Positions 13,601 to 16,600 of a stretch of DNA of 20,856 bases are shown here, one piece after another. The position numbers were made by a program. Position 1 is the stretch's first letter. Every line of letters starts with the position of its first letter. Location: IMG/VR virus record IMGVR_UViG_2529292985_000021, positions 1 through 20,856 of that record; one strand, written 5' to 3'. Source of the stretch: a virus (taxonomy: Duplodnaviria > Heunggongvirae > Uroviricota > Caudoviricetes).

Positions 13601-16600
13601 AATTCTGAAACGCCCGCATGGCACCGTTTTTCCAGTCGCCCTGCGCCACTTCCAGTTCCTGCCAGTAGCGTTTGTTTTCATTCAGTTGTCGCTTCAGGCT
13701 CCCCTTCAGCACCTCCTCAGCCCTCCGGTAGTCCTCCGTCCCGTAAGTGCCTTTCTGGCGACTGTCATTCTCAAGCTGTTGCAACTGTTGCCGGTATTCC
13801 TGCCGGATGCGCAACTGTGCCTGGTAGCGCTGCCGCTGCTTATCCCCCATACCTGCAGTGGCAATATCCAGATTGTGCTGCTCACGCAGTGCACGTTCTT
13901 TGTCTGCCAGCTGGCTGGTCAGCTGAACCGTTTTTTTTCTCAGGTCGTTAAGCGCTGTCTGTTTCTGCAGCTCCTGCTGTTTCACATCCAGCAGCGTCAG
14001 CGCCTGAATCAGCTCATTCTTACGGGCCAGCACACTCTTTTCATCTGCCGTCAGCTTTTTCCCGTCCAGGTCGCTGATGCGCTGCTGCAGGGCCAGAAGC
14101 TGTTTATGCGCTTCAGTCATCCTTTCAGTGGCAATGCCTGCTGACTGTCTGGCAGCAGCAATCTGCCCTTCCACCTGTGCCTGCTGCTGACTGTACTGCA
14201 GCAATAACCGGGTGGCCTCATCATTACGGGTTGCCCGTGTATTTTTCTTAATGGCTTTTTCGTAACGTTCATTTTCACGCTGTATCGCCGCATCCCTGAC
14301 AGCCTGGTCGGCGTACTGCATGGCATTAATACGCGCAATTTCCCGCTGATGTCGTGCAGCTTCCGTTTCATTCATCCGGTTCAGCACGGCATTTTCAGCA
14401 TTCCGGCGTTTCTGTTGCTCCTGGTAATTCCGTTCTGCCTGCGCTTTTGCATCCTGCAAATCCTTCCGGCGTTTTTTCTCCTGAAGATCGTTAAGACGCT
14501 GCTGATCGTACTCCACCTGTGTGGAGGCGTTTGTCCACGGATATTTTTTCGCGCGCTGAATTTTTTCCTGTAACGCATCAATCTGCGCATCCAGCGAGTC
14601 TTCACGACCAATATTCATGGCCGCATCCCAGAACTGCTTCCACCAGTCAGACAAGGTTTGCAGCGTACTACCCAGCGCATTGAGATTATTATCAATATCA
14701 GATGTGCGTTTACCGGTTTCCTCTGCCAGCGCAGACATGGCGATCCGGGCCGCATCACTGGACCGCCCCTGCTCCCCAAGGACGCGTATCTGCTCAAGCT
14801 GAGTGGCAGTCAAAAAATGCAGCGCATTGTCCAGCGCCTTCGCGGCATTTACAGGATCATCCTTCAGCCGCTTAAACTGATTTATGGTATCGCTGACCGA
14901 CTGGCCAACCGATCGCTCCATCTGTGCGGCAGCTTTCGCCACCATACCAATATCGTTTCCATGAAATGCCCCACTGCCCACCACCTGTGCCAGCGCACCG
15001 GCTGCCGCATGTTGCGTGATACCATTCCCGGATATGGCCCGGCTGAGTTTCCACAACTGCCCGACAGTGACACCGGCATAATGTCCCGTCAGCGCCAGCT
15101 GACGGTTAAATTCCTCGCCCTCCTTCCGGCCGTCATGCCAGGCTTTACCCAGACCCAGGACCGCCGCGACAAGTCCGCCAATAACGCCGCCAGTCATCAT
15201 GCCTTTCGGCGACATCAGTGCGCCTGTCCATCCGGCACGGTTAGCCAGCGTTATCCCGGATCCCCTCAGCGCACCAAAATTGCCGCGCGCCATCTGACTG
15301 ATTAACACCCCCAGCTCCCGCCGGGCTGCCGCACTTTTCAGCCCCAGCGAATGTGTGGCTTTTCCTGCCCGCTCCATTTTGCGGATATACACTTCTCCAG
15401 CACTGCTTACCCCCAGCTGAGCCGCCCTGGCGCGAAGCAACTCAGAAGACGACAGATTCTGGCGGGTTGCCTGCTCTTTAAGCTGGCGGATAAACGCCGC
15501 TTTCTGCCGGGTGGCCTGTTCCTCTGCCTGCGTCAGGGCACGGGTTTTCGCCGTGATCTCCGAAATCAGCGCCAGATAATCCTGCTGACCAACCCCGCCA
15601 CTGTTTCTGGCCTGTCGGATCTGCTGCTGAATACGCTGTAATTCCTGAAGCCCCGCACCGGCCTGTTTCACACTGTCAATCTGGCGATAAAAGGCGGCAG
15701 CCGCTTTATCCTGCGCCTCCGCCAGTGCCCTGGCCTGCGCCTGTTCCTCGCGCATTTTCTGATTCAGGGCATCCACGCGCAGACGGGTTTGTTCCACCTC
15801 ACGGGCCATGCGTTCATGAGCCCGTGCATTCTTCTCCACCGTCTGCGCATGGGCTGATGCTGCTGTTGCAGCCGAAGAAGCCGCATGCATTGTCTGCCGG
15901 GCCGCCTGAGTCTGACGCTCCATAAAACGCTGCATACGGGCAGAAGACCGTTCTGCATCACCGGCTGCACCATTCAGAAGGTTTTTGATACGGGGAATTT
16001 CATTTTTAAACTCTGCCGCATCAATCCCCAAATCAATGACCAGGTTGGCTATCTGGTCCATAACGCACACCTCCGGAAATACCTTCCCCAAGATGCATCA
16101 GTTCTTCGTCCGTTCGCTCCGGTATCCCGTTCTCTTCCGGTAAAAGGCTGAAATCAGCCACCGCAGCATCACTGCTGCCGGACACCATTCTCACGATCAA
16201 TGCCTTCAGCGAGGCAAACTGCGCATCCATCCACACATCACTGAAGCTCTGCATCCGGAAATAATCGCCCCCTCACCAAGCTCAGTGGCCGACATTTCCG
16301 ACAGCATCCGCCGCCAGTCTGCCCGCCGGAACTCCCGGGCAAGCCGCATGACAAACTGCATTTCCCGCGTCAGGACTTTTCCGGCGTCAGCGCCTCATGA
16401 TCATCATCCCCGGCATTCTCAATGGTCCCCATACCGCTCAGCGACAGAACCCTCTCCGCCCCCGCGCCCAGCGCATCATACGACCATGTTGTCATAATGG
16501 ATGCGCAAAGCGTCTCAACATCCTGAGACTGCTCAGCATTCCACAGTGAGCGGGAAAGCAGCCAGGCATTGATATCCATTCCCATACGCAGAAAAGCAAT

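Follow-up and report, generated by a model that had tools for sequence, protein, structure and literature searches.

A shared, predicted G-T slip site and a one-base deletion in gene T of an ipaH-carrying Shigella dysenteriae prophage remnant

The DNA described here, a contig of 20,856 nt (the window, by which the whole analysed stretch is meant), very probably combines a wild-type frameshift site with an inherited, pseudogenising deletion in gene T, within an ipaH-carrying prophage remnant of Shigella dysenteriae. The region concerned would be the G-T-H junction of a lambda-like tail module of the mEp460/cdtI type. Its resemblance to the G/G-T system of lambda extends to the gene order V-G-T-H, the protein families of G (PF06894) and T (PF06223), the overlap of T with the start of H, the placement of T in the -1 frame over the 3' end of G, and the presence of a slip motif at the homologous position. 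The two systems differ in the motif itself, which is G_GGA_AAG in lambda and G_GAA_AAG in the window, and in their G proteins, which are only ~29-31% identical; moreover, lambda T is 144 aa long as against 109 aa for the T considered here, and T in the window is broken by a 1-nt deletion. The minus strand carries all genes of the region, in the order V-G-T-H, and the tail module is laid out as follows.

16815..17548, minus strand: gene V, major tail protein, without its first 7 nt, start codon included
16370..16759, minus strand: gene G for the tail assembly chaperone, intact; 129 aa, or 128 aa if counted from the second ATG (16756)
16395..16397, minus strand: -1-frame TGA that bounds the slip region upstream, the -1 frame being open only from 16394
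16376..16382, minus strand: G_GAA_AAG, predicted -1 programmed frameshift site, the same as in functional phages
16206..16394, minus strand: 5' part of T in the -1 frame, made up of 5 linker codons, T codons 1-30, 21 out-of-frame codons and a stop
between 16271 and 16272, minus strand: 1-nt deletion, the T missing from GAG-T-GGGGC in TGG codon 31 of T
16033..16272, minus strand: 3' part of T, codons 32-109, in the third frame; PF06223; DNA identical to that of the relatives' intact T
13020..16061, minus strand: gene H, tape measure protein, 1013 aa from the ATG at 16061, intact

A G-family chaperone gene is present between the genes for the major tail protein and the tape measure protein. In a Pfam search G matches Phage_TAC_2 (PF06894, E = 3.9e-38), and the records of relatives name the gene 'phage tail assembly chaperone G'. 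The exact H protein is named tape measure protein in Shigella dysenteriae, including an accession of strain CDC 74-1112, and Pfam TMP families were matched in the relatives' loci. Between these two genes no stop interrupts the -1 frame from 16394 until the one at 16206-16208, a span that takes in the ORF 16206..16361 and its upstream extension; the T-family ORF in this frame overlaps G by 25 nt, and T follows without an intervening stop. The translation of this 5' part, GADAGKVLTREMQFVMRLAREFRRADWRRMLSEMSATELGE, agrees with intact T as far as E30, and an exact protein look-up of the 51-aa ORF in the -1 frame returned no record. The rest of T is found in the third frame, where the 73-aa ORF 16033..16254 matches Phage_tail_T (PF06223, E = 1.2e-10) and has a database entry that reads 'phage tail assembly protein T, partial'. 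The final 29 nt of T lie within H, an overlap that is likewise seen in annotated relatives. The first-pass annotation of this DNA had placed the -1 stop at 16206 and the remainder of T in the third frame, ending 29 nt within H; all of these coordinates are correct, and its third-frame ORF is indeed gpT-like.

On the minus strand G ends with ACG CCG GAA AAG TCC TGA (16387..16370). The same annotation had remarked that this end, ccg gaa aag tcc tga, lacks an X_XXY_YYZ heptamer, and that observation stands: there is no strict heptamer of this kind in 16372-16394, the sole region where a -1 slip works. The only shift-prone motif in the 25-nt overlap between G and the -1 frame is G_GAA_AAG, within which an A_AAG tetramer lies in phase 2 relative to the G frame, the correct phase for a slip. 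G_GAA_AAG is accordingly described here as an A_AAG tetramer-type site, not a strict X_XXY_YYZ heptamer. In E. coli, A_AA.G surpasses the other Z_ZZN tetramers in shift-proneness (PMC4066793), and IS1222 makes productive use of A_AAG (PMC4066793; PMC5009743). At such sites one tRNA-Lys slips from AAG to AAA and the preceding codon cannot fully re-pair (PMC5009743). The sites of IS1222 (G_CGA_AAG) and Bacillus subtilis cdd (A_CGA_AAG) are A_AAG tetramer sites like that of the window, but they have been tested experimentally and often possess stimulators, whereas the window site is predicted and no stimulator was detected beside it.

Reporter assays have shown that tetramer sites without a stimulator barely exceed background (0.147% versus 0.112%; PMC4066793), and the lambda system requires a ratio of only about 1:30 (PMC5009743). 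No RNA stimulator was found in the 57 nt or the 92 nt 3' of the slip site (z = -0.03 and -0.86 against dinucleotide shuffles), and since the folding energies are no better than those of the shuffles, no downstream stimulator is claimed. There is a Shine-Dalgarno-like GAGG at 16393-16396 on the minus strand, 10 nt 5' of G_GAA_AAG, which is the spacing of the dnaX Shine-Dalgarno stimulator. This GAGG is kept in the mEp460 group and Gifsy-2 and is absent in phi80 and Providencia PSTCR8lys; as an upstream stimulator it is noted as an observation only, because coding constraint accounts for it equally well. A search of the literature for GGAAAAG as a tail frameshift site gave nothing usable and found no experiment measuring frameshifting on G_GAA_AAG in a G-T gene. 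A paper on 'Tai' tail-assembly interference proved to be unrelated, with no involvement of G or T.

The slip site is shared far beyond the window. In an alignment of the window with its closest prophage, that of E. coli FDAARGOS_943, and the isolated phages mEp460, Tritos, Ayreon and cdtI, CCGGAAAAGTCCTGA is identical in the four phages and CGCCGGAAAAGTCCTGA is invariant in every member of the set. From the slip site through T to the start of H, the DNA of these four phages is identical, bar one substitution in Ayreon. The slip region is likewise invariant in all of the readable IMG/VR relatives (117/117). A broader survey took in 14 individually chosen lambda-like G-T phage loci; a search for related loci by alignment of the G protein gave close relatives only (at least 90% identity) and added no diversity. 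About 10 of the 14 loci have G_GAA_AAG in an identical codon phase and 1-7 codons ahead of the G stop, with phi80, LLS, Flotzy, mEp043, Gifsy-2 and mEp460/cdtI all matching the window in motif and phase. The motifs are distributed as listed here.

G_GAA_AAG: mEp460 group, Gifsy-2, phi80, LLS, Flotzy, mEp043
G_GAA_AAG, also: Klebsiella Kp4865-4, Enterobacter MStein-2023a, Providencia PSTCR8lys
G_GGA_AAG: lambda, PhiR57_1, an Stx2a phage
A_AAA_AAG: CP-1639

The surveyed phages have G proteins that are only 29-54% identical to that of the window, so the motif is conserved well beyond coding constraint. Two database records already name it. The phi80 record FN582354 carries the feature 'slippery sequence for -1 translational frameshift' at GGAAAAG, and the LLS record PQ299149 carries the feature 'minus-one programmed translational frameshift site GGAAAAG'; both are the assignments of annotators.

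Databases annotate a stand-alone T CDS from the ATG at 16361, 8 nt past the G stop, and a GGGA lies just upstream of that ATG, so that T might be a separate 109-aa protein made by re-initiation, with GGAAAAG irrelevant. We regard this as improbable. The GGGA is merely 2 nt from the ATG, and lambda T is made only as a G-T fusion (PMC5009743). In every relative, moreover, the open -1 frame extends upstream beyond the ATG and into G, and a correctly phased lysine-codon slip motif is never lacking from the overlap, even where the G proteins are only ~30% identical. Either way, the deletion destroys the T of the window.

The first-pass annotation had held that the slip site has mutated, and the corresponding scenario, in which an ancestral G_GGA_AAG decayed to G_GAA_AAG in this element with loss of frameshifting, can point to lambda, PhiR57_1 and the Stx2a phage, all with G_GGA_AAG at the homologous position, and to the departure of G_GAA_AAG from the strict X_XXY_YYZ pattern. 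That said, mEp460, Tritos, Ayreon and cdtI, which are isolated phages that share this tail module, have the same site, as do the 117 IMG/VR relatives, and it recurs in phi80, LLS, Flotzy, mEp043, Gifsy-2 and the Klebsiella, Enterobacter and Providencia phages, with the phi80 and LLS records naming it as the slip sequence. With the site present in functional phages, the odds of decay are close to negligible. A canonical X_XXY_YYZ heptamer does not define the G/G-T family, because functional members such as phi80, LLS and mEp460 are also without one. To judge from these comparisons, the slip site of the window is wild type. GGAAAAG is normal for a widespread phage group and is already so annotated in databases; in frameshift annotation it should be accepted as a normal G-T slip site and not taken as a sign of decay.

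For the intact relatives, the following scheme is proposed. Ordinary translation would yield G (129 aa), and a few ribosomes would slip by -1 on G_GAA_AAG, two codons before the G stop, with tRNA-Lys moving from AAG to AAA. The tRNA-Glu in the P site would, as its codons suggest, re-pair only near-cognately, from GAA to GGA. The product of the slip would be a 242-aa G-T fusion, and, by analogy with lambda, its T domain would bring the major tail protein to a tape measure coated with chaperone.

The window departs from this scheme at a single base. Multiple alignment together with the blastn gap list placed the deletion in T, where GAGTGGGGC has become GAGGGGGC by the loss of a T between G and GGGG; intact relatives read GAG TGG GGC (E30-W31-G32) and the window reads GAGGGGGC. 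The two allele forms at the site are GAGGGGGCG versus GAGTGGGGCG, and from the slip site to beyond the start of H this one gap is the sole difference between the window and the intact sequence. It had been proposed that a 1-nt change at the C5/G5 run at 16268-16272 could join the two frames, and the alignment does put the missing base there. The further suggestion that T carries a homopolymer frameshift was half right: there is a real 1-nt frameshift, and intact relatives are without it, but the lesion is a lost T rather than an altered homopolymer length. Indeed, the G5 run at 16268-16272 (C5 on the plus strand) exists because the T was lost. Alignment with intact phages therefore counts against one half of the first-pass reading, a mutated slip site, since the site is shared, and in favor of the other half, a broken T, since the deletion is unshared.

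Intact T is 109 aa long, and PF06223 covers its residues 24-99. A database search with the repaired T of the window returned WP_001161009.1, 'phage tail assembly protein T', as an equal, and the repaired protein is 38% identical to lambda T (E = 3e-26). Since PF06223 lies at residues 24-99, a deletion in codon 31 throws nearly all of the T domain out of frame. Phages with GGAAAAG have an uninterrupted T frame and the window does not; here the frame fails to reach the tape measure gene and ends at the stop at 16206-16208. The predicted G-T fusion shrinks accordingly from 242 aa to 184 aa, of which the final 21 residues are nonsense. The slip product of the window would consist of G, 5 linker residues, 30 residues of T and those 21 residues, and next to nothing of the T domain would remain in it. 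That domain, in lambda, binds the major tail protein and brings it to the G/G-T-coated tape measure (PMC5009743), and because of this role, loss of the domain should abolish chaperone function. By this comparison the T of the window would be a pseudogene of the lambda-type G/G-T family, and T in the Shigella remnant should be annotated as such.

The intact allele is by far the commoner one. A megablast search with 15980-16840 returned 1850 records from E. coli and 17 from phages. When the site was probed with an 81-nt sequence spanning it, about 1836 complete genomes of E. coli gave matches, and each had the extra base (98.8% identity, 82 nt in the subject); a full-length gapless match was found in none of them. 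All isolated phages examined have an intact T. In IMG/VR, at least 120 contigs have the intact allele, with lengths of 30-60 kb in many cases, and two short fragments have the deleted one. The deletion allele was absent among GTDB species representatives, which presumably include no Shigella genomes.

Indel errors are frequent in G runs such as the one that the lesion touches, and a comparison of 11.1 kb with the closest E. coli prophage shows only this and one other indel, so it is natural to ask whether the missing base is a sequencing or assembly error beside a homopolymer, with T really intact. This has very little chance of being correct. The same deletion is present in nine of the ten NCBI assemblies that carry the 73-aa fragment; five of them are complete chromosomes, and at least one of the nine is from S. 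dysenteriae. Over 3222 bp that take in the IS66 junction, the window and the complete chromosome CP026840.1 are 100% identical, and the window is a separate draft contig of 20,856 bp. The change, moreover, is the loss of a T and not of one unit of a run. Because nine independent assemblies carry it, the deletion is inherited and fixed rather than a sequencing error. It occurs both with an intact V (loci L008 and L012) and with a V truncated by an IS66-family element, and therefore predates the IS66 insertion. As it is found in loci with different later lesions, the T deletion might be of modest use as a phylogenetic marker in tracing this ipaH prophage through Shigella, though its significance beyond annotation is slight.

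A compensating second -1 slip on the G5 run (GAG_GGG_GCG), by which tRNA-Gly moving on G_GGG would re-enter the T frame within the 67-nt overlap at 16272-16206 and yield some full-length G-T with W31 changed to G, can be given next to no credence, for Sharma et al. ascribed the above-background signal of a G_GG.G construct to spurious initiation and not slippage, two rare events would have to be multiplied to give the yield, the arrangement occurs in no relative examined, and V and J are broken too. With the T deletion taken as a genuine loss, one might still imagine a use for what is left. The remnant might go on translating G and, by way of its intact slip site, a truncated 184-aa G-T*, which could be a dominant-negative inhibitor of tail assembly, directed against superinfecting phages of the mEp460/cdtI type, that helped to fix the deletion; this is a speculative proposal and very unlikely to be right. 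If it were true, a protein that keeps the tape-measure-binding G domain and has lost the T domain would confer a host benefit across Shigella lineages.

The T frameshift is better seen as an ordinary case of pseudogenisation within a prophage remnant of Shigella. The tail module has at least three lesions, namely this one, the loss of the V start and a frameshift in J. Two further features are needed here.

17579..18982, minus strand: IS66-family transposase, Pfam DDE_Tnp_IS66, E = 2.6e-96
7167..10645, minus strand: gene J, tail tip protein, split into 791 + 368 aa

Similarity to V ends at window position 17548, which corresponds to position 207 of L008, where V starts at 200 and encodes 246 aa; the longest ORF left of V in the window encodes 228 aa (16815..17501). 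The IS66-family element starts at about 17549, abuts V and removed its 5' end, with helper ORFs extending to about 19968, and the junction of V with the element is common to loci L009, L011 and L013. J has suffered an independent 1-nt deletion near 8304, where GGCCCGGCC has become GGCCCGCC on the plus strand by the loss of a G; in the syntenic prophage of E. coli FDAARGOS_943, J is a single CDS of 1159 aa. Records of the 791-aa J fragment are confined to S. dysenteriae CDC 74-1112 and one 4.7-Mb chromosome, a restriction from which the J lesion is taken to be younger than that in T. Over the 11.1 kb that align with the FDAARGOS_943 prophage, at 99.1% identity, the deletions in T and J are the only two indels.

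None of the head, lysis or regulatory genes is on the contig. With T and J frameshifted, the start of V lost and whole modules missing, the element has the makeup of a defective (cryptic) prophage remnant. Thus the earlier claim that GT synthesis and tail assembly are abolished holds insofar as the T domain is lost, but it is overstated as to cause, because V has lost its start, J is frameshifted and the head module is absent from what was already a remnant. The T deletion would be of no further consequence, because the element is already without head genes.

The order along the contig is a lactonase gene and a LysR-type regulator, IpaH, the tail genes from the tail fibres to V, the IS66-family element, a GyrI-like gene and IS1, the last of which makes up the final 450 nt (20404-20856). 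Positions 1-1695 of the window are chromosomal and comprise a LysR-type regulator fragment and a 7-bladed beta-propeller lactonase (pgl-like). An IpaH-family type III effector E3 ubiquitin ligase of 608 aa, with LRR_TTSS and NEL domains, is encoded at 2570-4396 on the plus strand; it is IpaHb in S. dysenteriae (WP_024259768.1), and it is prophage cargo just past the tail-fibre genes. Lambdoid remnants that carry ipaH are found in Shigella and enteroinvasive E. coli, with IpaH by the tail-fibre genes, IS1 and IS66 insertions, and pseudogenes, and the element in the window is a typical member of this group.

The tail-fibre gene at 5150..6478 encodes 442 aa, as against 470 aa for its FDAARGOS_943 orthologue. 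The alignment breaks at a GCTGCTGC repeat (5908-5924) with a difference of 1 nt, which may reflect variation in repeat length or a further lesion. E. coli FDAARGOS_943 itself (L006, 775397-806293; L001) holds three copies of the G-T region with T intact. Its syntenic prophage adjoins yecD and aspS, a flank unlike that of the window, and in this copy T and J are intact and V is interrupted by IS1. In the ipaHd-linked copy of FDAARGOS_943, IS1 interrupts V and a frameshift affects a head-tail joining gene, an independent decay of the same type of prophage.
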